From Escherichia coli (GTDB taxonomy: Bacteria; Pseudomonadota; Gammaproteobacteria; Enterobacterales; Enterobacteriaceae): a stretch of 64,000 nucleotides of DNA. Every line of letters starts with the position of its first letter. The first letter of the stretch is position 1. Positions 9,138-26,459 of the stretch are shown one piece after another. The stretch lies in NCBI RefSeq assembly GCF_009931435.1, contig NZ_CP043414.1; one strand, given 5' to 3'. Both the position numbers and the translations under genes were made by a program. A model generated the notes under the pieces. It did no database searches, was not told the DNA's origin, and saw only the letters and a program-made list of their open reading frames with translations.

Positions 9138-9564
9138 AAGCTGTGTGACGAAGTAACCACTCTTAACAGCATAACCAATTTTTTACGTACGTAAACCACT
9201 AAATGATATTTGAGAGAATGCTACCGAGTATTGAAAACACCACTACAAATACATAAGCAAATCTCAACAAATAACCAAAAAATAATTTCCAGTGTTATTT
9301 TTAGCCGGTTTAAATTGAACCTTCAAATTATAGAACACTTATAAATAACAGCCGTTAATATAAATTGGCTAATAGATTTATTTTTATTCAGCCAAGAGCC
9401 ATGAATAGGATTCGATAGAAAAAAGTTCAGATAAAAATAGAGATCTACTTCACAAATCAAACGAGAAACCAAAACTTACATCTTGAAATAATCACATTGA
9501 TTAGATGAATATTTATCGCGCAGTGACATCATTTTTTAATAATAGTTCAAAAAAAGGGCTCACG

Positions 9565-10662
9565 ATGAAAAAATTAACAGTGGCAATTTCTGCTGTAGCT
9601 GCATCAGTACTGATGGCGATGTCTGCTCAGGCAGCTGAAATTTATAATAAAGACAGTAACAAGCTGGATCTGTACGGGAAAGTTAATGCTAAGCACTACT
9701 TCTCCTCTAATGATGCAGATGATGGTGATACTACTTATGCCCGTCTTGGCTTCAAAGGTGAAACCCAAATCAACGATCAACTGACTGGTTTCGGTCAGTG
9801 GGAATATGAATTCAAAGGCAACCGCGCTGAATCTCAAGGTTCCTCCAAAGATAAAACCCGTCTTGCCTTCGCTGGCCTGAAATTCGGTGACTACGGCTCC
9901 ATCGATTACGGCCGTAACTACGGTGTAGCATACGACATCGGTGCGTGGACTGACGTCCTGCCAGAATTCGGTGGTGACACTTGGACTCAAACCGACGTGT
10001 TCATGACTCAACGTGCAACTGGTGTTGCAACCTATCGTAACAACGACTTCTTTGGTCTGGTTGATGGTCTGAACTTTGCTGCTCAGTACCAAGGCAAAAA
10101 CGATCGTAGCGATTTCGATAACTACACTGAAGGTAACGGTGATGGCTTCGGTTTCTCTGCTACCTATGAATACGAAGGATTCGGTATCGGTGCAACTTAT
10201 GCGAAATCTGATCGTACCGACACTCAAGTTAATGCAGGGAAAGTTCTTCCTGAAGTATTTGCTTCCGGTAAAAATGCAGAAGTTTGGGCCGCAGGTCTGA
10301 AATATGACGCTAACAACATTTACCTGGCCACTACCTATTCTGAAACCCAGAATATGACTGTATTTGCTGATCACTTCGTTGCTAATAAAGCCCAAAACTT
10401 CGAAGCTGTTGCACAATATCAGTTCGATTTCGGTCTGCGTCCGTCCGTTGCTTACCTGCAATCTAAAGGTAAGGATCTTGGAGTATGGGGCGATCAGGAC
10501 TTAGTCAAATATGTTGATGTAGGTGCAACCTATTACTTCAACAAAAATATGTCTACTTTCGTTGATTACAAAATCAACCTGCTTGACAAAAATGACTTCA
10601 CTAAAGCACTCGGTGTAAGCACTGATGACATCGTTGCTGTAGGTCTGGTTTACCAGTTCTAA
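9565..10662 (+). CDS. nmpC: Phage-encoded OmpC/OmpF-family general porin (NmpC-like), intact
   Basis: Signal peptide [24 protein letters not shown]-terminal ...VGLVYQF; AGGG SD upstream; no IS interruption. Confidence 0.9.
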
Positions 10663-11820: not shown

Positions 11821-12107
11821 GCCTTAATAACCCCCTCTTTCAGCCAGATAACCTGTGTTCTCGCCATACCTTCCAGCGCGCATTCTTTTGCATATCCAGC
11901 GTCAACAAAATGCGTGCGGCGGTCGATTTCGTCGTGGCAGGCAGAACATGCAATGGTGGCAATCAGGTCTGGCGGTTTCGTACCGGTGCCGCACAATCCA
12001 GTCAGCCGGATATGTGCCAGTACAGACGTTTCAGGGTTGCCATTACATACGCCAGGGATTCTTACCTGGCATTCCCGACCACGCGCTGCTTTTCTCAAAT
12101 CAGCCAT
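11817..12107 (-). CDS. ybcO: DUF1364-family putative nuclease (YbcO-like)
   Basis: 96 aa from [23 protein letters not shown]; Cys-rich. Confidence 0.75.
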
Positions 12108-12270
12108 GACTCCTCCTTGCTGCCAGTCGCAACCATTTTTTATCAACCAAGCTGGCGGTATATCCGAGCAGTGTTGGTATTTCGGATGGCTTCAGCTCAG
12201 GTTTACGCTTACGACGATTTGGTACTCTGTAGATGTGTCCGTTCATGACACGAATAAGCGGTGTAGCCAT
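12100..12270 (-). CDS. ninE: NinE protein
   Basis: 56 aa from [27 protein letters not shown]. Confidence 0.75.
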   Translation of the reverse strand: MATPLIRVMNGHIYRVPNRRKRKPELKPSEIPTLLGYTASLVDKKWLRLAARRSHG

Positions 12271-12725
12271 TACGCCTCCTGCTTGTCGCGCAGCAGCTGG
12301 AACTCGCAGCTCTGTGGAATAGTCAGGTGGCAACCAATATTCATCGCCCAGGCTTCAACCTTACACAGGAAGACATACATCTCTCCGGTATCAAGATCGG
12401 AGGTATGGCGTAACGACTGGATAGTGGTGATATCACCGGTTACGACATCAACCAGGTCTTTGGTTTCATAACCGAGATATGTGTGTTTGAGAGCATCTTT
12501 TACCCAAGCTGGAGTGGCGAACGTTTTACCCCTGCTGATGAGGTATTCACTGATTTCGCTGTACCACATGTGGCTGAGTGCATTCTGGGAAAGACTGCGT
12601 TTCTCACGCCACGGTTTAAGCACCATGCGAAAGCATTTGCCCTCCTCCAGATAAGGCTGGATCTGCCGACCGATAGCGGTGAAGTTGCCGCGATGTAATT
12701 TGATGCCGTCTTGTGAGAGGTTCAC
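12270..12725 (-). CDS. ybcN: NinB/YbcN-family DNA-binding protein
   Basis: 151 aa, in the nin-region position. Confidence 0.7.
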
Positions 12726-12939
12726 GCTTCCCCTCCGCAGAGGTCAAACGCTAGATGCAAAGAATTGCAGGTGCATTTCTGCATCTGTGAAGGGAGAAGA
12801 GAGTTTGGATTGTATGTGCGCATAAACGTCCCCGTTTAGCGCAGAAGTCACCGGAGTTGTTCAGGCTCCGGTGACATAATTATGCCGTGTTGATTTCCCA
12901 AAATCAAAATCGATAGAATTGCTCCTTCTTAAAACACTT

Positions 12940-13737
12940 TTACTCTCTGGAAGCTTTTCTTATCTCTCTTGGTGTTATATTAAAACGATTATGAAATCTT
13001 TCAGTAAAACGAGAAGGACACTTATAACCATTTTCTCTGGCAATCTCGCTTATAGGTTTTACCGTCGTTTGTATAGCAGACAACGCATTATTTAACCTCA
13101 CATCGTCCAGTATACTTTGGAAACTTACCCCCTCGCTTGCTAGACGGCGATGTAATGTAGAAACAGAAATGTAGAGATATCGAGCAACCTTGTTTGCTGT
13201 CCATTTTGTGCCGGGTTCGGATAGCAGCAGGTTATAACAACGACTTATCAATGATTGTTTACTATATGATAAAAGTAAATGATTAACATGATTCACTCCT
13301 AACGAAAGTAGAACGCCCATTGCTAAGTGCTCCTGAATTTTAGTTGAGAAGCCTCGGGAAACAGATGTTTTTAGTTGCTCCCAACAATATATTAACTCAG
13401 GATTCTGAGGTAAAAAGAAACTTGTTTTGTTACGTATTTGATCAGTTACCGTATAAAGTTTTTGGAAACTCTCAATTAAATCAATGGGTAAGTAAAGCAT
13501 TTCTGCAAGATAAAGCCCTGCTTCAGGATAATTCTCAATATAAAATTCATAACCACAAGGAAATAATATTATTTGATTATTATCAACAGTTAAAGTATGC
13601 GTCTCCCAATTGATAACTTTCTTTCCCTGACGGATACGACACAAAGCTGGCATAAGAGGCTTAACCCTATGAATCTCATGATGTTTATGCATCCGTATTT
13701 CTTCGATCTTTAAGTTAGTCTTACCTCTTGCCAGCAT
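12940..13737 (-). CDS. ybcM: AraC-family transcriptional regulator (YbcM-like)
   Basis: 265 aa; C-terminal AraC HTH; AT-rich codon usage. Confidence 0.8.
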
Positions 13738-13746
13738 ACTCTCACC

Positions 13747-14298
13747 CTACTTTATCTCATAAACTGGTGTTATCTCAGCGGTTGCGATTTTATTAGCATT
13801 AAGCATATAACCAACTAACGCTCCGCTGGAGTTAGAATCTACAGGAATCTTTTCAGTTTTTAGAGCCCATACTTTAAACTGGTAATGATGTGGTTTATCT
13901 CCTTTAGGAGGACATGCGCCACCAAACCCAGCATAGCCAAAATCATTTCGGCCTTGAACAGCACCAGTCGGCAGTTTTGTTCCATCACGTCTCCCTGCAT
14001 CAACGGGCAAATATGTTACTGTTGCTGGAATATTAACAACAGTCCAATGCCACCAACCACTGCCTGTAGGTGCATCTGGATCATATACAGTTACGGCAAA
14101 GCTTTTGGTACCTTCAGGAACACCAGACCAGGTTAATGAGGGCGATGTATTACCACCTTCACACCCAAATCCAGAAAAGACATGAGACGTTGTAAGTTGC
14201 TCTCCTGTTTTTATTTCATTACTAGTGACCTGAAATGCTGCAGCCTGCGCAGAAAATGTTATGAATGCCAATACAGTTGAAACGATAAGTGTTTTCAT
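13747..14298 (-). CDS. ybcL: Periplasmic PEBP/YbhB-family protein (YbcL-like)
   Basis: 183 aa with signal peptide MKTLIVSTVLAFITFSAQAAA. Confidence 0.8.
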   Translation of the reverse strand: MKTLIVSTVLAFITFSAQAAAFQVTSNEIKTGEQLTTSHVFSGFGCEGGNTSPSLTWSGVPEGTKSFAVTVYDPDAPTGSGWWHWTVVNIPATVTYLPVDAGRRDGTKLPTGAVQGRNDFGYAGFGGACPPKGDKPHHYQFKVWALKTEKIPVDSNSSGALVGYMLNANKIATAEITPVYEIK

Positions 14299-14514
14299 AA
14301 AAACCTCTTTGTTATGACCTATCGTTATTTTATTTGATATTCCTTTATCTCATTATGCATAAAGGCGCAATGTTCATGCAAAAGCAATCACAATTGTACC
14401 CCCAACCCAATTATTTGCCACAATATACACAAAGCACATTGATACTATCTAAAAACTCTGCTTTATTATTAGTAACACCTACGAAAGTCGGTGTTATTTT
14501 TTAACCTACCATTC

Positions 14515-14564
14515 AAAATACGTGACATACACCATTTTGCTCATAATAATTTGTCACGTATTTT
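14515..14564. repeat. Perfect 13-bp inverted repeat (aaaatacgtgaca ... tgtcacgtatttt) with 24-bp spacer, between ybcK and ybcL
   Basis: Read directly from sequence. Confidence 0.8.
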
Positions 14565-14762
14565 CAGTATTTGAATCTGCGACCAAGAGTTCTCACCTAA
14601 CAAATGATTAAGATTGTATAGCTCATTTACTACCCCAATACAGCCGTACAAAACTCGCTTGTGGGAGCAAACAAAGTAATTACCCATTAAGTTTCGTCAA
14701 AGATAATTAATTCTGTCTTGCACTTTATCACCATAGCATAACTTAAAATCCGAGATCATTAT

Positions 14763-16289
14763 TTAGAAATAAATCTCACCATCAACCATATATTTGAGAG
14801 CACTTATCGCCTGCTGGGCGGATATTACTTTCATTAAAGGATAGTGTTTAAAAACAATGCCATTCATAAAATAGATATCACAGGTTTTATTATCCGTATT
14901 AATTATGATTTTTTCGAATGTTTTATAGGCAAGTGTACGGCATAACTCTCGTCCATTTTTACTGGTTAAGTCAATAGCATAAAAATCACTGAATGAATTT
15001 ACACCTTTACTCTTCAAAGTTTTCAATGATACCGAAGCCCTTCGTAATTCCTTATCTAATAGTCTTATTTTCTCTGCTATAGCGGTAACTTCAGGCGCGA
15101 CAGACAATGCAACGATTAAATTATTAATTTTCATCTGAAGCTCAATAATTTTTAACTCTAAAGTTTCATTAGCATCTTTCTTGTTTTCAACTGGTTGAAT
15201 TTTGCTACAATTAAAAAGCAATTCATTAATGATATTATAATCAACCAAATCTCTTTTTATTGATGGCCTGTCACATCGATGTAATCTTCTCATCGGACAA
15301 ACATAATAGCCATGCAAACTTCCAGATACCGCATGAACAATCATGGTATTACCACAAGCCTCACACTTCATAACTGTTCGAAGTAGATTTATTAGCATAG
15401 GATTCTTGCTACTATTGCTAATACCAAAAGGTGCCAACCGAATTTCCTGTACAGCGTAAAACAAATCATCTGATATGACTCTGGGATAATAGCCAGCGAT
15501 TTCACTTATCCCTTTCCCTCTTGCACGATATGAAGGTACGCAAATACCTATCAGAGCTTTATTCGCTAATAATTTTTCAATTACAGAAGGTCCCCATGCA
15601 CTTTCTTTTCCTGAGAAATTCTTTACAGCATGATCATTTAAATACTTGGCTATTGCATTCAATGAGCGCCTTTCCATCCTGAGTTTAAAAATTAGCTCAA
15701 TAGTTTTCACCCTGTCTGGGTCTGGAACAAAAGCCGTTCTTTTGTCATCTAAGGAGAGCCATCTCGGATAAGACGCCGTCATAATCGTACCTGATTCCAG
15801 TGCATCCTGCCGTTTTTTCTTCCATGATAATTTAACCCGACTTGACTTTATCTCGCTTTCTTCATTTGCCCTTTGTGCTATAAGTATGGCTTTTATTAAT
15901 GAATATGGCTCATTCAAAGAGTCAATATTATAGACTGTATTGTCGCAAAGAGTTATAACATCAATACCGTGATTCAAAATCAATTTCAGACGTTCAATCG
16001 CTTCACCGACTTTTTCTCTTGAAAGTCTGTCCAGACTTTCAACTAACAATGTAGTTCCTGGCAATATATAACCATGCTCTATAGCATCTAAAAATTCCGA
16101 AAAAGCTCCTGATTGTGCATGCTTTCCTTTGAATGCACTTAATCCTAAATCTTCATATGTTATGGTATCAAGATAATAATCACTATTTACCTTTAACCAT
16201 TCAGCAATAAGTCTTCTCTGTCGGTTTAATGAGTCGCCAGACATCTGACCTGGTGATGAAAATCGCATATATGCTATGGCTTTTTTCAT
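14763..16289 (-). CDS. ybcK: Large serine recombinase (resolvase/invertase N-terminal domain; YbcK-like)
   Basis: 508 aa; N-terminal catalytic serine motif (AIAYMRFSSPGQ); large C-terminal domain with Cys cluster. Confidence 0.85.
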   Translation of the reverse strand: MKKAIAYMRFSSPGQMSGDSLNRQRRLIAEWLKVNSDYYLDTITYEDLGLSAFKGKHAQSGAFSEFLDAIEHGYILPGTTLLVESLDRLSREKVGEAIERLKLILNHGIDVITLCDNTVYNIDSLNEPYSLIKAILIAQRANEESEIKSSRVKLSWKKKRQDALESGTIMTASYPRWLSLDDKRTAFVPDPDRVKTIELIFKLRMERRSLNAIAKYLNDHAVKNFSGKESAWGPSVIEKLLANKALIGICVPSYRARGKGISEIAGYYPRVISDDLFYAVQEIRLAPFGISNSSKNPMLINLLRTVMKCEACGNTMIVHAVSGSLHGYYVCPMRRLHRCDRPSIKRDLVDYNIINELLFNCSKIQPVENKKDANETLELKIIELQMKINNLIVALSVAPEVTAIAEKIRLLDKELRRASVSLKTLKSKGVNSFSDFYAIDLTSKNGRELCRTLAYKTFEKIIINTDNKTCDIYFMNGIVFKHYPLMKVISAQQAISALKYMVDGEIYF

Positions 16290-16543
16290 GGTGACACCTG
16301 CTAACGTATGCTTTTATAAACCTTAGTGGTGGGATATAATTTTTGTTTATTTTTTATTTAAAAAGACAATTAAGGTCACATTATCTTGAATATACAACAA
16401 TAATCGTATTGCAATTTTCTTACGCCATAATCTTGAAAGCACAAAAGAATACATAAAAAATAAAGACATTAACAAAAAGCATAAAACGAGGCTCATATAA
16501 ATATAAGAGCCTCCATATTTTAGTCGTTTAGAAACAAATTATT

Positions 16544-16876
16544 TTAATGTGGTGTGCTTCGTGACAATAAATTAATAATCAACACACCGGCACAAATCAA
16601 CATCATGCCTATAATGGCTGGCAGGTCCAGCCGTTGGCCGAAAAATCCCCATGACAGTAAGCTAATCAGGACAATACCGACTCCTGACCAGATAGCATAA
16701 GCAATCCCTGTAGGAATATAAGCCAGCGTCTGAGCTAATAACCAGAATGATGCACAATAACAAATAATTGTACCAACAGATGGCCATAACCGTGTAAAAC
16801 CTTCTGAAAACTTCATTAAGGTTGTACCAATGACCTCTGCAAGTATTGCACCACCAAGATAAATATAAGGGTTCAT
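16544..16876 (-). CDS. emrE: SMR-family multidrug efflux transporter EmrE
   Basis: 110 aa from MNPYIYLGGAILAEVIGTTLMKFSEGF, matches recalled EmrE. Confidence 0.95.
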   Translation of the reverse strand: MNPYIYLGGAILAEVIGTTLMKFSEGFTRLWPSVGTIICYCASFWLLAQTLAYIPTGIAYAIWSGVGIVLISLLSWGFFGQRLDLPAIIGMMLICAGVLIINLLSRSTPH

Positions 16877-16943
16877 AGCATATTCTTTCCTGTTCAAACT
16901 GGAGAGAATTGTACTACAGTTTGAACTCAACTCACCTGTTTCA

Positions 16944-17246
16944 TCATTGTGTTCCCATTGATGTTCTTTTATATACCCTCAATACCCGTTTCATCGCGGC
17001 ACTCTGGCGACACTCCTTAAAAATCAGATTCGTGCTCACCTTTCCTTCCCATTCTTCTCTGGTAGCGAACCGGTAATACACCGTTCGCCAGACCTTACCA
17101 TCAACGACCAGGATTCCTGCCCGCGCCATTTTAGCCGCAGCCTGATTTATGCTGGTTACGGTTGCGCCTGTTACCGCGGCAACGTCCTGTGCACAGAAGC
17201 TCTTATGCGTCCCCAGGTAATGAATAATTGCCTCTTTGCCCGTCAT
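16944..17246 (-). CDS. ren: Ren protein
   Basis: 100 aa, MTGKEAIIHYLGTH... matches lambda Ren. Confidence 0.85.
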   Translation of the reverse strand: MTGKEAIIHYLGTHKSFCAQDVAAVTGATVTSINQAAAKMARAGILVVDGKVWRTVYYRFATREEWEGKVSTNLIFKECRQSAAMKRVLRVYKRTSMGTQ

Positions 17247-17944
17247 ACACTTGCTCCTTTCAGTCCGAACTTAGCTTTAATTTCTGCGATCTTCGCCAGA
17301 GCCTGTGCACGATTTAGAGGTCTACCGCCCATAACAGGAAGTTGTTTTACTGGTTCAGGTATCGTCTCACCACGGTTAATTCGCGCTGTCATACAGGTCA
17401 GTTCATCGGCAGCCTTGCGCCGTAATTCCGCGTCAGCCAGCGCATTGGCCCGCATGTTCTGGTACAAGTTGGTAACCAACCAGTAATGCGCGTTCGATTT
17501 CCACGGATAAGACTCTGCATCCGGATACAGGCCACGCTTCCGGCAATACTCGTAAACCATATCAACCAGCTCGCTGACGTTTGGCAGCCCGGCGTTAACA
17601 GATGCTTCTTCCCGGCACCAGGCGACAAACTGCCCGGGTGATGGCAGGAATGGTCGATTCTGCCGACGGGCTACGCGCATTCCAGCGTTAACCTGTTCCA
17701 TTGTGGTGATCCCGTTTTCCCGGAAAGCCAGAACCCACTGGCGGCGGATTTCGTTCAGTTCATTCTGGTCACGGTTAGCCAGGCTAGCCGGGAAAGTTGC
17801 CAGTAACTGGCTGAACACACCGTTGATGATCTGCGCTACCTGCTGTACCTGCGGCTTTTCGTCGTACTGTTCCGGCATATTGTTGGCGATCCGGCGCATC
17901 TGCTCACGGTCAAAGTTAACCATCTGTGCGGCGATGTTTTTCAT
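17243..17944 (-). CDS. P: Replication protein P (DnaB helicase loader)
   Basis: 233 aa, lambda P-like. Confidence 0.9.
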   Translation of the reverse strand: MKNIAAQMVNFDREQMRRIANNMPEQYDEKPQVQQVAQIINGVFSQLLATFPASLANRDQNELNEIRRQWVLAFRENGITTMEQVNAGMRVARRQNRPFLPSPGQFVAWCREEASVNAGLPNVSELVDMVYEYCRKRGLYPDAESYPWKSNAHYWLVTNLYQNMRANALADAELRRKAADELTCMTARINRGETIPEPVKQLPVMGGRPLNRAQALAKIAEIKAKFGLKGASV

Positions 17945-18870
17945 AAATCCACCCCGTAAATCCAGTCAGTGTTCGTCAGGTCGAGTTTTGGTTTGCCGGC
18001 TGTCACGCCAGCCTGTTGCTTGTTTCGGTTGATTTCGAGCTGGGTCCACTTGTCGCGGAGTTTGGCCGGACTCAGCACGTTACCGGACCAGAAGTTGTCC
18101 TGGCATGCCCAGCGGAACAGCACGCACATGTCGCGGTGGTTACGTCCGTCACGTTCACGCATCAGGCGGATATCGTTAGCCCACCCTGCAAAATTCGGTT
18201 TTCTGGCTGATGGCGCGATGGTCTTCACCATGTCAAACATCCACTCTGCGGCGGTCAGGTCTTCTGCTGTCCCCCACTTGCTGCCACTCTGAATTGCAGC
18301 ATCCGGTTTCACCACAGGAAGGTCGTTTTCTGGCTGGTCAGAGGATTCGCCAGAATTCTCGGACGAAAAAGGTTTTATATTGTCTTTTGTTAGTTTGTCT
18401 TTTGTGTTTACCTGATTCGGGTAAACGCCTTTACCTGATTTGGGTAAACTTTTCTTACCTGATTCAGGTAAATTTACCTCTTTCAGGTAAACTTTATTTT
18501 TCTTACCTGATTCGGGTAATGTTGACCATTCACTGACCACATTATTAATGCCGATATTTCGCCCGCTCTGAATAAGAATCCCACGCTTTACCAGAACGCT
18601 TTTTGCAGCAGAACACTTGTGCGGCAATATCCCGGTCAATTCGGAAAGTTGCTCGTTGCTCACCCAATCCAGTCTTTTATTAAAGCCATATGTTTTGCGC
18701 ATGACAGCCAGGAAGACCAGAAGCTGGTGCTGTGTTAATCCGGCCAGCATCACAGCTTCCAGCAACTCATTTGCAATGCGCGTATAACCATCATCGAGAT
18801 CTGCCACGCGCGGCTCCTTTTGTGCCGCATCCGGCACTGGAAAATTGAATATCTCAGCAGTGTTTGCCAT
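17941..18870 (-). CDS. O: Replication initiator O (contains ori iterons)
   Basis: Lambda O-like N-terminus; start MANTAEIFNF preceded by GGGAGG SD (track ORF starts earlier at 18960); iterons inside the gene. Confidence 0.85.
   Translation of the reverse strand: MANTAEIFNFPVPDAAQKEPRVADLDDGYTRIANELLEAVMLAGLTQHQLLVFLAVMRKTYGFNKRLDWVSNEQLSELTGILPHKCSAAKSVLVKRGILIQSGRNIGINNVVSEWSTLPESGKKNKVYLKEVNLPESGKKSLPKSGKGVYPNQVNTKDKLTKDNIKPFSSENSGESSDQPENDLPVVKPDAAIQSGSKWGTAEDLTAAEWMFDMVKTIAPSARKPNFAGWANDIRLMRERDGRNHRDMCVLFRWACQDNFWSGNVLSPAKLRDKWTQLEINRNKQQAGVTAGKPKLDLTNTDWIYGVDL
18372..18520. repeat. Origin of replication: five 18-bp iterons (ttacctgattcgggtaaa and variants) plus adjacent AT-rich tract, inside O
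   Basis: Iterons at about 18408-18425, 18431-18448, 18455-18472, 18474-18491, 18503-18520; AT-rich 18372-18406. Confidence 0.85.
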
Positions 18871-18956
18871 AATTCCTCCCGCAATGAGTGTGTTACGATT
18901 TGCACCTGAAAGTCGGTTCTGTTCCCGCAGACCGACTTTCGCCATTTCTGAACCTA

Positions 18957-19496
18957 TCATATTGCCCCCAGCATGGTGGTCACCATCGCCATTAATGGAC
19001 CAGCCAGATCCGGGTCCACACGAAACATCGACACAATACCTTCACTCATTTCCTTCAGTTTCTGGTGGCGTGGTGCGTTGAGAATGACAGCCTGTTTTGC
19101 CTCACTGAGTTCCTTTTCCATTTCAGCCAACCGAGTCATGAAGCTATCCTGCTCAACCAGGTAACCGCGATATTCCAGCGGTAGTACCGCCAGAATTGCC
19201 GGGGTCAGTTCACGCACGTTATTTCGGTATTTTTCAGAATCGAATTTGTTATCGAGGAAGCGGAACAGCTTCTGGCGTGCACGGCTGACATCATCAGGGA
19301 AATCGATGGTGCCGTCGCCCTGCTCCCGATACTCATTCACAATGAGTGCGGCAACGACATCCTGATTATCTACAGCCGACCAGGCGCGGACGGCATCACG
19401 GATTTTTTCGTGGCCTGGAGCTTGTTTTGTTTGAGAACGATTTATCACCGCAGTCGGAATAAATCCGCTAGTCTGTTGGTATGTAAGTGGTTGCAT
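18957..19496 (-). CDS. Early regulatory protein in the cII position (YdaT-like)
   Basis: 179 aa ORF between the cro-like gene and O. Confidence 0.6.
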   Translation of the reverse strand: MQPLTYQQTSGFIPTAVINRSQTKQAPGHEKIRDAVRAWSAVDNQDVVAALIVNEYREQGDGTIDFPDDVSRARQKLFRFLDNKFDSEKYRNNVRELTPAILAVLPLEYRGYLVEQDSFMTRLAEMEKELSEAKQAVILNAPRHQKLKEMSEGIVSMFRVDPDLAGPLMAMVTTMLGAI

Positions 19497-19565
19497 AATT
19501 GACTCCTTTAGTTTGAATTGACTGTTAAGTTGATTGCTTATTGTTAAAGAGCGTGAAATGGAAAT

Positions 19566-19796
19566 TTAAGCTGCGTTCTTTTCGGTGTGTGGAAACAACT
19601 TCGGAAGATCCGGGCGAATCTGGTATGCCTTCACAACTCCACCAGTAGCCGTAACAATGCTGCCGACATGTTCAGGGGATACCTTTGCTTTGTTGTGAAG
19701 CCACTTATAGACGGCCTGCTGTGAAACTTCGCAGGCATCGCCTAGTTTCTTTTGTGAACCAACGATATTGATCGCTGTTTTGATTGCTGGGTTCAT
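19566..19796 (-). CDS. cro: Cro-like HTH regulator (YdaS/Cro family)
   Basis: 76 aa, divergent from the cI gene across the operator region. Confidence 0.7.
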   Translation of the reverse strand: MNPAIKTAINIVGSQKKLGDACEVSQQAVYKWLHNKAKVSPEHVGSIVTATGGVVKAYQIRPDLPKLFPHTEKNAA

Positions 19797-19900
19797 AACA
19801 ACCTCCGTGGTTAATCCGAATCAAGATTAAAACTATGGTTGTTTTTAGTCAACAACCATTTTCGTTTGATGAAATAAAACCTTGGTTGTACATTTGATCT
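19797..19900. promoter_or_regulatory. Immunity-region divergent promoter/operator (OR-like); 9-bp-arm palindrome atggttgtt-N7-aacaaccat at 19835-19859
   Basis: Palindrome and repeated ACAACC/GGTTGT half-sites between divergent cro-like and cI genes. Confidence 0.6.
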
Positions 19901-20590
19901 ATGAAAACAACACTCTCAGAAAGACTTAAAGAAGCCAGATTAGCGCGAGGCCTTACACAAAAGGCGCTTGGGGATTTGGTCGGGGTTAGCCAGGCTGCTA
20001 TTCAGAAAATCGAAACAGGGAAAGCTAACCAAACAACTAAAATCGTGGAGATCGCGAACGCTTTGGGTGTACGCGCAGAATGGTTATCTTCTGGCGTTGG
20101 AAATATGTCAGACAGTACAGTGCAACCAATACAATCAACTGTCAGCCATTCCAAATACTTCAAAATTGACGTTCTTGATATAGAAGTCAGTGCCGGGCCA
20201 GGTGTAATCAACCGTGAGTTTGTAGAAGTTCTACGCTCGGTTGAGTACTCGTTTGACGATGCTCGTCACATGTTCGATGGCAGGAAGGCGGAAAATATCC
20301 GCATCATTAACGTGCGAGGTGACAGCATGTCAGGGACGATCGAACCAGGTGACCTGCTGTTCGTTGATATCACTGTTAAATCTTTCGACGGTGATGGCAT
20401 CTATGCGTTTCTGTACGACGACACTGCCCATGTAAAACGTCTTCAAATGATGAAGGATAAGCTGCTGGTTATCTCTGATAACAAGAGCTACTCGCCGTGG
20501 GACCCGATCGAGAAAGACGAGATGAACCGGGTGTTCATATTCGGTAAGGTCATTGGAAGCATGCCGCAGACGTACAGGAAGCATGGTTAA
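19901..20590 (+). CDS. cI: CI-type prophage repressor (XRE HTH plus S24 LexA-like autopeptidase domain)
   Basis: 229 aa; N-terminal HTH; C-terminal GDSMSGTIEPGDLLFVD peptidase motif. Confidence 0.85.
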   Translation: MKTTLSERLKEARLARGLTQKALGDLVGVSQAAIQKIETGKANQTTKIVEIANALGVRAEWLSSGVGNMSDSTVQPIQSTVSHSKYFKIDVLDIEVSAGPGVINREFVEVLRSVEYSFDDARHMFDGRKAENIRIINVRGDSMSGTIEPGDLLFVDITVKSFDGDGIYAFLYDDTAHVKRLQMMKDKLLVISDNKSYSPWDPIEKDEMNRVFIFGKVIGSMPQTYRKHG

Positions 20591-25005: not shown

Positions 25006-25348
25006 GGCCTGTCAGTTTCTTAAGATATCCAGACCAACCGCCACCAACTGGATACGAACAGGCCGCCTACAGGCAACACGTAAAGATCCAACCAAGCCAA
25101 AATCTCCTTACCTCACAACACGGCAAGCCTGCATTGCGGCGCTTCAGTCTCCGCTGCATACTGTCCAGGTGAGCGCGGGTGATGGCATAACAGAGGAAAG
25201 AAAATGTCACTCTTCCGCAGAAATGAAATATGGTATGCCTCGTATTCGCTCCCGGGCGGGAAACGAATTAAGGAATCTCTTGGCACAAAGGACAAGCGGC
25301 AAGCTCAGGAGTTGCACGACAAGCGAAAAGCAGAACTCTGGCGAGTAG
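24977..25348 (+). CDS. xis: Putative excisionase; 3' end uncertain, ORF overlaps the int start
   Basis: ORF directly upstream of int with HTH-like N-terminus ([26 protein letters not shown]); possibly a pseudogene as in K-12 xisD. Confidence 0.45.
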
Positions 25349-26367
25349 AAAAGCTAGGGGATTTACCTGATGTCACTTTTGAAGAGGCCTGCCTAAGATG
25401 GCTTGAGGAAAAAGCTGATAAAAAATCTCTCGATTCAGATAAAAGCCGGATTGAGTTCTGGCTTGAACATTTTGAGGGTATAAGGCTTAAAGATATCTCG
25501 GAGGCAAAGATTTACTCTGCTGTAAGCAGAATGCATAACAGAAAGACGAAAGAAATATGGAAACAGAAAGTTCAGGCCGCCATCAGGAAAGGTAAAGAAC
25601 TGCCTGTTTATGAACCAAAGCCAGTATCAACTCAGACAAAGGCAAAGCATCTTGCCATGATAAAGGCCATTCTCCGTGCTGCAGAACGCGACTGGAAGTG
25701 GCTGGAAAAAGCGCCTGTCATCAAGATACCAGCGGTCAGAAACAAGCGAGTCAGATGGCTGGAAAAGGAGGAAGCAAAACGCCTTATTGATGAGTGCCCC
25801 GAACCACTGAAATCTGTCGTCAAGTTTGCGCTGGCAACTGGTCTGAGAAAGTCGAACATCATAAATCTGGAATGGCAACAAATCGACATGCAGCGACGAG
25901 TTGCCTGGGTGAATCCAGAAGAGAGCAAATCAAACCGCGCCATTGGTGTGGCGCTGAACGATACCGCCTGTAAAGTGTTGCGTGATCAAATAGGCAAGCA
26001 TCACAAATGGGTGTTTGTACATACCAAGGCGGCTAAGCGAGCAGATGGAACATCAACGCCTGCGGTCAGGAAGATGCGCATCGACAGCAAGACATCATGG
26101 CTATCAGCTTGTCGTCGTGCAGGAATTGAAGATTTCCGTTTCCATGACCTCAGACACACCTGGGCAAGCTGGCTGATTCAGTCAGGCGTCCCATTATCAG
26201 TGCTTCAGGAAATGGGCGGATGGGAGTCCATAGAAATGGTTCGTAGGTATGCTCACCTTGCGCCTAATCATTTGACAGAGCATGCGAGGAAAATAGACGA
26301 CATTTTTGGTGATAATGTCCCAAATATGTCCCACTCTGAAATTATGGAGGATATAAAGAAGGCGTAA
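25204..26367 (+). CDS. intD: Tyrosine integrase (DLP12 IntD-type)
   Basis: 387 aa; C-terminal R...HxxR...Y catalytic region; adjacent to tRNA-Arg. Confidence 0.95.
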
Positions 26368-26382
26368 CTGATTGAATTGTAA

Positions 26383-26459
26383 TGGCGCGCCCTGCAGGAT
26401 TCGAACCTGCGGCCCACGACTTAGAAGGTCGTTGCTCTATCCAACTGAGCTAAGGGCGC
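26383..26459 (-). tRNA. argU: tRNA-Arg (anticodon UCU), argU; phage attachment site at its 3' end
   Basis: 77-nt reverse complement gives acceptor stem GCGCCCU/AGGGCGC, anticodon loop CUUCUAA, T-arm GGTTCGAATCC, 3' CCA. Confidence 0.95.

Follow-up and report, generated by a model that had tools for sequence, protein, structure and literature searches.

A probable patchwork of accessory cassettes in a hypervariable slot of an Escherichia coli DLP12-type prophage: the emrE-ybcK-ybcL-ybcM block and its orphan serine recombinase

The window analysed here is a stretch of 64,000 nucleotides from Escherichia coli (contig NZ_CP043414.1) that carries a lambdoid prophage of the DLP12 type, integrated at argU. 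The integrase gene of this prophage (25204–26367) lies directly beside a tRNA-Arg(tct) gene (26383–26459), and its product has matches among the integrase PHROGs, phrog_1 being one of them; by its correspondence to intD of DLP12, it should be of the tyrosine type. Between ren and the nin/Q operon lies a block in which ybcM, ybcL, ybcK, ylcJ and emrE are encoded on the minus strand throughout. It is the well-known emrE-ybcK-ybcL-ybcM segment of DLP12-type lambdoid prophages, and as such ordinary and already known. The features of the region are as follows:

12270–12725: ybcN (ninB-like), flanking gene, from the ORF call
12847–12875: repeat with a 10-bp stem in the nin-side flank (hairpin dG -19.8, z -4.9)
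12847–12907, minus strand: putative promoter of the nin-side flank (-35 at 12902–12907, -10 at 12879–12884), mapped from the annotation of the phage 82 record X92588
12910–16970, no strand: AT-rich accessory block that occupies the slot between ren and nin
12940–13737, minus strand: ybcM, AraC-family regulator of 265 aa with a C-terminal HTH (ORF; RefSeq name ybcM)
13747–14298, minus strand: ybcL, periplasmic PEBP/RKIP-like protein of 183 aa (NCBIfam PRK09818; PDB 1FUX)
14366–14399, no strand: YbcM binding site, ChIP-exo peak with a signal/noise of 357 (inferred mapping of site 570015–570048, supplement of PMC8464067)
14393–14421, minus strand: sigma-70 promoter of ybcLM, GTGGCA-17-TACAAT (promoter-like site in the scan; hexamers in PMC3946193)
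14454–14700, no strand: junction segment M3 of 247 bp, holding the hairpin and the inverted repeat, exclusive to the ybcK-ybcLM arrangement
14471–14502, plus strand: hairpin followed by T6, intrinsic-terminator-like, antisense to all genes (dG -11.7, z -3.45; weaker on the minus strand)
14515–14564, no strand: perfect 13-bp inverted repeat with a 24-bp spacer (arms 14515–14527 and 14552–14564), assessed by dG, z and simulation
14763–16289, minus strand: ybcK, large serine recombinase of 508 aa (Pfam Resolvase, Recombinase, Zn_ribbon_recom)
15768–15770, minus strand: codon 174 of ybcK, TAT (Tyr) here and TGT (Cys) in all other copies (comparison with genomes and viral loci)
16347–16496, minus strand: ylcJ, small protein of 49 aa (ORF; sequence identical to ylcJ in PMC6001520)
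16351–16379, minus strand: sigma-70 promoter of ybcK, GTGACC-17-TAAAAA, inside ylcJ (hexamers of PMC3946193 located in the window)
16483–16513, minus strand: terminator-like hairpin and U-run, directly downstream of emrE and overlapping the ylcJ start (dG -14.6, z -3.3)
16544–16876, minus strand: emrE, SMR multidrug and quaternary-cation efflux pump of 110 aa (NCBIfam SMR_efflux_EmrE; PDB 3B5D)
16944–17246, minus strand: ren, flanking gene (ORF call), its final ~9 codons within the variable zone

The ORF call agrees with the gene positions and identities of the first-pass annotation, in which the emrE ORF was the correct one but its end at 16930 reflects an upstream TTG extension. Judged by its full-length match above a curated cutoff, the emrE product is the SMR transporter EmrE: it passes the NCBIfam SMR_efflux_EmrE exception model with 239.7 bits (cutoff 226), and PDB 3B5D matches residues 1–110. 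By the same kind of match, YbcL belongs to the YbhB/YbcL family of PEBP proteins, scoring 400.3 bits against PRK09818 (cutoff 277) and matching PDB 1FUX with an E of 1.6e-112. Residues 150–264 of YbcM align to many AraC-family models (E down to 1e-18) and supply the C-terminal double helix-turn-helix that defines AraC/XylS proteins. Because all of these matches stay below the equivalog cutoffs, no specific orthologue was assigned. Published ChIP-exo data place YbcM upstream of ybcLM, which answers the earlier question of whether it regulates ybcL, and an H2O2 phenotype has been reported for ybcM (PMC8464067). The site was placed in the window with NC_000913.2 coordinates assumed and the ylcJ coordinates of PMC6001520 as anchor; that paper gives the ylcJ protein sequence together with its location in K-12. 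So mapped, the peak falls on the ybcLM promoter and not on the 13-bp repeat, in the stretch that is best conserved with a locus lacking ybcK (see below). The promoter hexamers stem from genomic SELEX in vitro, which gave GTGGCA/TACAAT for the ybcK>ybcL spacer and GTGACC/TAAAAA for the emrE>ybcK spacer (PMC3946193).

The GC content of the block is 0.363, whereas the whole window has 0.493, the nin-side flank 0.487 and the ren-P-O flank 0.510. In composition, the block thus differs from the adjoining phage genes as morons and hotspot cargo do, and it was correctly described at first as AT-rich cargo located between ren and the nin genes. Homology to phages and genomes with other cargo ends at ~12909 and restarts at ~16971, and in cargo-less phages the homology to ren/P likewise begins at ~16971. 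One edge falls within the 3' end of ren, the other just past the -35 element of the promoter annotated in phage 82 for the orf33-orf151-rus-Q operon. In the window, this putative promoter and the 10-bp-stem repeat belong to the ylcH-ybcN-ninE-ybcO-rusA-Q operon and mark the nin-side boundary. The block edges are therefore ordinary module junctions, the same two being used by unrelated cargo, a coincidence that had been named at first pass as speaking against an island.

What occupies these junctions varies widely, as seen in the differing slot contents of the phage records PhiR68_2, Perceval and PhiR26_1. Perceval carries emrE-ybcK and an esterase; in O157, emrE-ybcK stands alone, the short variant seen there amounting to a simple internal deletion. 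In another filling, emrE-ybcK is joined by an Ant-C-like ORF and by a gene of 309 aa that PADLOC identifies as BstA (E 3.6e-121), while recombinase-free fillings consist of PD-lambda-1 with Rha, or of two hypothetical genes. Across 91 viral loci, the genes downstream of ybcK fall into at least nine cargo classes, and live phages bear the entire block plus their own integrase. As in a hotspot, the contents are thus dispensable, and viable relatives have other genes between the same two junctions. Among E. coli genomes, ybcK-ylcJ-emrE-ren is colinear in 1392 and the full block is present in 669–674, whereas about 2700–2900 carry emrE-ybcLM without ybcK at a non-prophage site, in the order yedK-porin-ybcM-ybcL-emrE-fliE and with ~91% identity. 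The block has no collective identity, since emrE, ybcK and ybcLM assort independently. Separate promoters have been published for ybcK and ybcLM, in agreement with the promoter scan, and the terminators are predicted hairpins. An anti-phage defence system was considered and rejected for the window proteins: PADLOC returned no defence-model match for YbcM, YbcL, YbcK or EmrE, while the sibling cargo BstA does match.

Taken together, the block is probably a patchwork of accessory cassettes in a hypervariable phage slot, swapped by ordinary phage mosaicism. The slot of DLP12/lambda-type phages would extend from the ren 3' end to the promoter of the ylcH-ybcN-...-Q operon, with the present block as its current filling, and at least three cassettes would have been assembled and exchanged by mosaic recombination at gene boundaries. 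The first would comprise emrE, a cation/drug efflux pump, with its hairpin, which would act as a terminator; the second ylcJ-ybcK, a stand-alone large serine recombinase with its own sigma-70 promoter; and the third ybcL-ybcM, a periplasmic PEBP protein with an AraC-type regulator that binds its own promoter. These cassettes would represent lysogen-expressed cargo, presumably of some benefit, rather than phage functions.

The joint between the second and third cassettes, M3, is lacking in the ybcK-less locus as well as in every other ybcK cargo class, occurs once each in 674 genomes and 3 phages, and showed no similarity to any other collected sequence. Both elements noted there at first pass, the perfect inverted repeat and an orphan plus-strand terminator between ybcK and ybcL, are real as structures. 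The repeat folds with a dG of -18.9 on the minus and -14.9 on the plus strand (z -4.2 and -4.5), and an A-run on its 5' side and a T-run on its 3' side lend it the look of a two-way terminator or insulator. Of 2000 first-order Markov simulations of the block, 21 (~1%) contained some perfect 13-bp repeat whose arms were at most 60 apart. Most likely, repeat and hairpin would serve as terminators or insulators, not as recombination sites. As a counterpoint, termination at either element is a prediction, and a generic terminator scan did not list the 14471–14502 hairpin and yielded no excess of terminators over shuffles. It seems quite unlikely that the repeat serves instead as an operator, bound by a dimeric protein, or belongs to an antisense promoter. 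Its dyad symmetry is perfect and a plus-strand promoter-like GTGACA-17-AATAAT lies within it, but such matches occur at chance level in the region (17 found versus 15.9 expected), the strong YbcM peak maps ~120–200 bp off, the 24-bp spacer was judged long for a simple operator, and the hairpin energy is well beyond shuffles on both strands.

The most conspicuous resident of the block is YbcK. Pfam places Resolvase on residues 4–161 (E 2e-18), followed by PF07508 (recombinase) and PF13408 (zinc ribbon). R9, S11, Q15, D87, R88 and R91 are invariant across 19 family members, so that the catalytic serine, singled out for checking at first pass, is intact. Similarity to solved integrases is detectable by the family profile alone, of which positions 190–474 align to the C-terminal region of A118 integrase (4KIS, E 5.6e-16) and to SPbeta SprA, and this alignment adds a coiled-coil region to the architecture. 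By domains and catalytic residues, YbcK is a complete, intact-looking large serine recombinase, in keeping with the earlier remark that a 508-aa serine recombinase accompanies the prophage's own integrase. The window copy deviates at codon 174: its 61-mer at this site was found in none of 1144 genomes, the codon is TGT in 100 of 100 viral loci, and Cys is near-invariant in the family (at least 90%). The C174Y exchange may thus impair this particular copy. Otherwise, ybcK is under strong purifying selection (dN/dS 0.08–0.18) and therefore does something beyond what the patchwork reading specifies. A Rho/NusG-dependent terminator was reported in the untranslated region upstream of ybcK (PMC4150792), H-NS and Hfq binding has been published for the ylcJ-ybcK cassette, and silencing of ybcK in K-12 has been reported. 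The location of a recombinase beside a cargo slot with fast turnover is suggestive in its own right.

Could YbcK excise, integrate or invert the block or part of it, via sites such as the 13-bp repeat? The first-pass annotation had proposed a nested mobile or invertible unit, and the enzyme does possess all catalytic and DNA-binding domains of a large serine recombinase. An attP site measures ~50 bp, and the repeat spans 50 bp; it is improbable by chance, as simulated above, and a ybcK-less emrE-ybcLM arrangement exists. Yet no inversion, excision or reordering was seen in 109 viral loci or in any sampled ybcK-positive genome, all consensus assemblies in which rare events are invisible, and order and orientation are fixed throughout. 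No second copy of the repeat, a search for which had been proposed at first pass, was found, nor any counterpart near ybcK orthologues. Att sites of large serine recombinases measure some 40–50 bp, with imperfect dyads and a common dinucleotide at the centre. The repeat is the sole dyad near ybcK and is not co-inherited with it, being missing in ~720 ybcK-positive genomes with other cargo, about half of the total. By inspection, the inner ends of the 14454–16536 segment lack dyad symmetry, the cargo junctions are common to recombinase-free phages, and the short O157 variant needs only the deletion mentioned above. We thus regard such an activity as highly improbable. Two specific versions were rejected: an invertible switch of the Hin/Gin type, given repeat arms just 24 bp apart, with no other copy and uniform orientation in 109 loci, and a recombinase-driven nested integrative element, given independently assorting genes and ends shared with recombinase-free cargo.

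The leading guess that accompanies the patchwork reading is that YbcK would be an active recombinase in most copies, acting in trans on a site outside the block. A rival proposal has YbcK as an accessory integrase- or excisionase-type recombinase that would act in trans on an external att pair, for example at a secondary chromosomal site or in another element, and provide the phage with a second option for integration or rearrangement. This rival is conceivable, if doubtful. It accords with the full integrase-type architecture including the coiled-coil, with the low dN/dS, and with orthologues of 41–61% identity that occupy the terminal phage position next to host DNA in Atlantibacter, Erwinia and Ewingella. 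The Atlantibacter gene converges with ssrA, in the way that intD converges with argU. However, no prophage among the sampled E. coli genomes ends at ybcK, the gene is silenced in K-12, and near-identical orthologues, located either at prophage ends or within the nin region, are homologous over the ORF and not beyond it. Because of this restriction, no flanking att site is co-inherited. Between genera, DNA homology around the orthologues likewise ends at ORF limits (-68 to stop, or -10 to stop).

The compactness of the moved unit, the ORF only, also invites the view of ybcK as a selfish self-mobilising mini-cassette, or as a factor for exclusion of or defence against incoming DNA, with its neighbours as bystanders. 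Indeed, ybcK occurs as a solitary gene in the accessory slots of numerous prophages and islands that are unrelated to each other, beside defence-type cargo such as SIR2-like, AbiEi and BstA genes. Against this, ordinary phage mosaicism also yields joints at ORF boundaries, PADLOC gave no match, and no conserved flanks, terminal repeats or conserved ends were found around ybcK orthologues. Genomes carry one copy, with a second in a few, and the E. coli context is always the same. We consider this proposal improbable. Slightly better placed, though still rather unlikely, is the idea that the YbcK-type proteins of enterobacterial temperate phages form a conserved class of large serine recombinases that stand alone, move between accessory slots as bare ORFs and do not integrate their own phage. 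Such enzymes might act in trans on a site of the host or a rival phage, in secondary integration, exclusion or a genetic switch, possibly with the Ant-C-like neighbour of 107 aa as directionality factor.

For the genes as such, little is new: the K-12 proteins EmrE, YbcL and YbcM have been studied before, and the block resides in a textbook cryptic prophage. It should not be treated as a single functional island or mobile element. Rather, DLP12/lambda-type phages have in their ren-to-nin slot a hotspot for cargo and defence genes, with BstA and PD-lambda-1 in siblings. YbcK is one of a family of orphan recombinases, widespread and maintained by selection, that could be a source of new recombinase/att pairs.

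Compared with large serine integrases (A118 and SPbeta SprA; phiC31 and Bxb1 type), YbcK shares the resolvase, recombinase and zinc-ribbon domains, the coiled-coil and the catalytic residues. It differs in the profile-level nature of this similarity, in having no att site found for it, and in residing inside a phage with its own integrase, with no prophage seen to end at its gene. With the serine invertases (Hin, Gin, Pin and Cin, acting on hix/gix sites), YbcK has the catalytic domain in common, and some orthologues directly follow tail-fibre assembly genes, like gin and pin. In contrast to these enzymes of ~190 aa with a C-terminal HTH, it has 508 aa and the DNA-binding domains of large recombinases, and the window has no inverted site pair, duplicated tail-fibre cassettes or inversion variants. 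Transposons and islands with large serine recombinases (TnpX of Tn4451, TndX of Tn5397, Ccr of SCCmec) also combine the recombinase with resistance or accessory genes. Yet ybcK is not at the end of a defined element with conserved ends or a precise presence/absence polymorphism, and emrE and ybcLM occur without it.

The closest relative is DLP12 of K-12 itself, with the same gene set, order and intergenic sequence, argU attachment and an integrase abutting the tRNA gene. As the first-pass annotation had stated, the genes are those of this prophage, K-12 strains being 100% identical to the window over 291 bp around the inverted repeat. In contrast, the window prophage retains an uninterrupted porin ORF as well as cI, cro, O and P, all of which are absent or disrupted in DLP12 of K-12; moreover, ren is cut by IS3 in K-12, and C174Y is private to the window. 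In its organization, finally, the locus resembles the moron and defence hotspots of prophages (P2 hotspots, bstA loci, PD-lambda-1). Its proteins match no known defence model; they comprise an efflux pump, a recombinase, and a PEBP protein plus the regulator of the latter. It does share with these hotspots a fixed slot between conserved phage modules, in which siblings harbor differing AT-rich, self-promoted accessory genes, including BstA and PD-lambda-1 (PMC9519451).

The AT-rich accessory block between ren and the nin genes that had been picked out in the first-pass annotation is borne out by base composition, with a GC content of 0.363 vs 0.487 and 0.510 in its flanks. It is bordered by ren (16944-17246) and by ylcH-ybcN (ybcN at 12270-12725), and its sequence matches the K-12 DLP12 segment, in agreement with the earlier identification of its genes. 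According to the ORF calls, every gene of the block is carried by the minus strand.

Genes of the AT-rich block
12940-13737, minus strand: ybcM, with an AraC-type HTH
13747-14298, minus strand: ybcL, a PEBP protein above the NCBIfam cutoff and with a match to PDB 1FUX
14763-16289, minus strand: ybcK, 508 aa, with Resolvase, Recombinase and Zn_ribbon_recom domains
16347-16496, minus strand: ylcJ, an ORF of 49 aa (PMC6001520)
16544-16876, minus strand: emrE

The same prophage encodes O, P, cI and a Q antiterminator, together with its own integrase (25204-26367), which abuts tRNA-Arg(tct) and which we take to be of the tyrosine type from knowledge of DLP12 intD. P, O, a CII-like ORF, a cro-like ORF and a cI-type repressor are all kept at 17243-20590, and the window prophage may therefore still be inducible; K-12 DLP12 is without these genes. 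Phage records near-identical to this prophage exist, with PhiR68_2 at 99.8%. Downstream of Q lies an uninterrupted OmpC/NmpC-like porin ORF (9505-10662); nmpC of K-12 DLP12 is broken by IS5. At an E threshold of 1, Rfam had no match within 12000-18000.

Set against 5,426 complete E. coli genomes and phage records, the interval from ~12910 to ~16970 emerges as a variable slot. Phages PhiR68_2, PhiR34_1 and PhiR70_1 and 669-674 genomes hold the full block there, while Perceval, 4A7 and others combine emrE-ybcK with an esterase gene on the opposite strand and O157 holds emrE-ybcK only. In a further slot type, emrE-ybcK is followed by a 107-aa ORF resembling the P22 antirepressor C-terminal domain and then by one variable gene, which in one of the variants encodes the abortive-infection protein BstA (PADLOC E 3.6e-121). 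Slot types lacking both emrE and ybcK contain PD-lambda-1 and Rha, or two hypothetical genes. Colinear ybcK-ylcJ-emrE-ren occurs in about 1392 genomes. In addition, about 2700-2900 genomes have a non-prophage locus without ybcK, yedK-porin-ybcM-ybcL-emrE-fliE, that is ~91% identical to the window and in which window 12733-14453 joins directly to 16537-16952. Relative to the window copy, its representative L001 shows 6 residue differences in YbcL and 24 in YbcM; in this example (NZ_OZ121072.1, 613247-627389) the nin genes are also absent. The ybcK-less locus resembles the remains of an old prophage of which only the cargo was retained.

Since emrE-ybcK, full-block and ybcK-less emrE-ybcLM arrangements all occur, emrE, ybcK and ybcLM assort independently, and the block is a patchwork and not a unit. 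One of its boundaries falls in the final codons of ren, and the nin-side boundary just past the -35 of the promoter annotated for the orf33-orf151-rus-Q operon in the phage 82 record. These two points are ordinary module junctions, and recombinase-free cargo uses them too. As sibling phages hold bstA or PD-lambda-1 in the same slot (L113 and related viral loci; L004 1823-2752; L006 3987-5489), the ren-to-nin slot is a defence and cargo hotspot, and the block is an ordinary accessory region of this hotspot that was known before. Most phages without ybcLM have a conserved 105-109-aa ORF (phrog_7640, P22 antirepressor C-terminal-domain-like) 116 nt after ybcK, for example at L004 2957-3274 and in cargo classes C-E, G and I, and in Pantoea a weak KilA-N ORF comes after the ybcK orthologue. 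The recombinase may have a conserved partner in the P22-antirepressor-like ORF behind ybcK.

A mobile or invertible unit nested in the prophage, as first suggested, is supported neither by these junctions nor by the uniformity of the region: in 109 ybcK-bearing viral-contig loci the order ren-emrE-ybcK-cargo-ybcN and every orientation are identical, and the sampled genome classes share this arrangement, so that no recombination at nearby repeats is seen in either set. Within the 64-kb window, no second copy of the 13-bp repeat exists beyond its two arms (3 matches with 2 mismatches vs 1.7 expected), and the repeats found on either side of ybcK and of the block, direct and inverted alike, are short AT-rich matches at chance level. 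An imperfect 7-bp TA(A/G)AAAC motif at 14450 and 16529 is, by inspection, missing from the ybcK-less locus. A shared breakpoint ~70-80 bp downstream of ybcK was rejected as an att site, as the O157 breakpoint, and with it the short O157 variant, traces back to a deletion within the orf107-type arrangement. Conserved dyads downstream of ybcK orthologues are ordinary GC-rich terminators only. Viral-contig scans for ybcK contexts outside E. coli mostly filled up with E. coli-type loci.

The 13-bp inverted repeat (14515-14527 / 14552-14564) is indeed perfect, and the plus-strand hairpin next to it (14471-14502, with a T6 run) was likewise recovered; a comparable 13-bp repeat arises in ~1% of composition-matched simulations. 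Both sit within a 247-bp joint between ybcK and ybcL (14454-14700) that is present only at ybcK/ybcLM contacts, is missing from about half of the ybcK-positive genomes and has no counterpart beside ybcK orthologues. This joint was dismissed as an independent element, given its single copy per genome in this context only, and it shows no similarity to the other cargo or orthologue loci collected. Folding energies of the repeat are -18.9 kcal/mol (minus strand, z about -4.2) and -14.9 kcal/mol (plus strand, z about -4.5); an A-run borders it at one end and a T-run at the other. Together, inverted repeat and hairpin probably separate two cassettes as a predicted pair of terminators or insulators. 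By analogy with Perceval, in which the terminator of the esterase gene faces ybcK, this pair may be what is left of a former convergent cargo gene.

Sigma-70 promoters and H-NS sites have been assigned to both spacers by genomic SELEX (PMC3946193).

Sigma-70 promoters (PMC3946193)
16351-16379, minus strand: ybcK promoter, GTGACC-17-TAAAAA
14393-14421, minus strand: ybcLM promoter, GTGGCA-17-TACAAT, which matches a promoter-like site found here

The regulation of ybcL by YbcM, raised in the first-pass annotation, has already been answered in the literature, where the strongest YbcM ChIP-exo peak lies at 570015-570048 with a signal/noise of 357 (PMC8464067). Placed on the window as NC_000913.2 coordinates with ylcJ as anchor, this peak would correspond to 14366-14399, i. 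e. 68-101 bp upstream of ybcL and distinct from the 13-bp repeat. The stretch holding this site is the one best conserved with the ybcK-less locus. A 56-aa plus-strand ORF (14334-14504) was not retained as a conserved gene, because stops break it in the 10%-diverged ybcK-less locus. The inverted repeat also contains a promoter-like match on the plus strand (GTGACA-17-AATAAT, 14522-14550), which follows directly on the terminator-like hairpin of that strand and points antisense into ybcK; promoter-like matches in the block region are at chance level overall. A terminator-like hairpin after emrE (16483-16513, minus strand) overlaps the ylcJ start codon, and with the ybcK promoter located inside ylcJ the signals of emrE, ylcJ and ybcK are tightly interleaved.

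The catalytic residues R9, S11, Q15, D87, R88 and R91 of YbcK are invariant across the family members compared, sampled from Escherichia, Atlantibacter, Yersinia, Pantoea, Erwinia, Kluyvera, Ewingella, Citrobacter and others. The family profile aligns to the DNA-binding and coiled-coil region of A118 integrase and to SPbeta SprA; these were reached by the profile only, and a single YbcK sequence as query matched no solved structure. Between E. coli alleles, a dN/dS of 0.08-0.18 indicates that selection maintains ybcK, which is also present in active phages. In K-12, the untranslated region ahead of ybcK is reported to hold a Rho/NusG-dependent terminator, and the gene itself to show Hfq/polyphosphate binding (PMC4150792, PMC10954037); one study found that ybcK over-expression confers sabinene tolerance, giving no mechanism (PMC7181518). 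A recombinase function of YbcK was not found in the part of the literature naming ybcK that full-text search covered. Our leading guess, tentative and rather unlikely in itself, is that YbcK acts in trans on a remote site. The window allele carries a private change at codon 174 (15768-15770), which reads TAT (Tyr); all compared alleles have Cys, as do at least 90% of family members, within a conserved CPRWL motif. The window's 61-mer over this codon is found in 0 of 1144 matched E. coli genomes, and TGT is present in 100 of 100 scorable viral loci. C174Y could be a genuine strain mutation or a sequencing error.

Orthologues of ybcK are solitary and in accessory positions: in Pantoea and unassigned lambdoid contigs they lie between replication genes and Q, and further ones reside in other islands. 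The nin region of lambdoid contigs encodes proteins 77-84% identical to the Atlantibacter copy, and DNA homology to the Atlantibacter locus is restricted to -68 or -10 through the stop codon. From these alignments, the moving unit is the bare ybcK ORF, with no flanking site travelling along. A self-mobile ybcK cassette, or else an exclusion role, is improbable and less likely than action in trans. In locus L054, 229 bp at 83% identity (9623-9851, 12609-12831), comprising codons 1-59 of a DUF1367 gene and ~50 bp upstream, flank a recombinase-KGG-DinI segment; at this length and identity, the duplication was read as a mosaic joint and not as an att duplication. A SIR2-domain protein lies just upstream (646 aa; 687 aa in L131). 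No L054-type recombinase was found in E. coli genomes.

In Atlantibacter, Erwinia and Ewingella, the orthologue follows a tail-fibre assembly gene and is the final phage gene before host DNA. The Yersinia orthologue, of the same tail-fibre group, lies between two prophages.

Orthologue loci after a tail-fibre assembly gene
8001-10432 in L008
10001-12954 in L014
10001-12159 in L016
8001-10232 in L010

Such orthologues at prophage ends may be the integrases of those prophages. The Atlantibacter copy is convergent with ssrA, the tmRNA gene, a topology that is the same as that of intD and argU.
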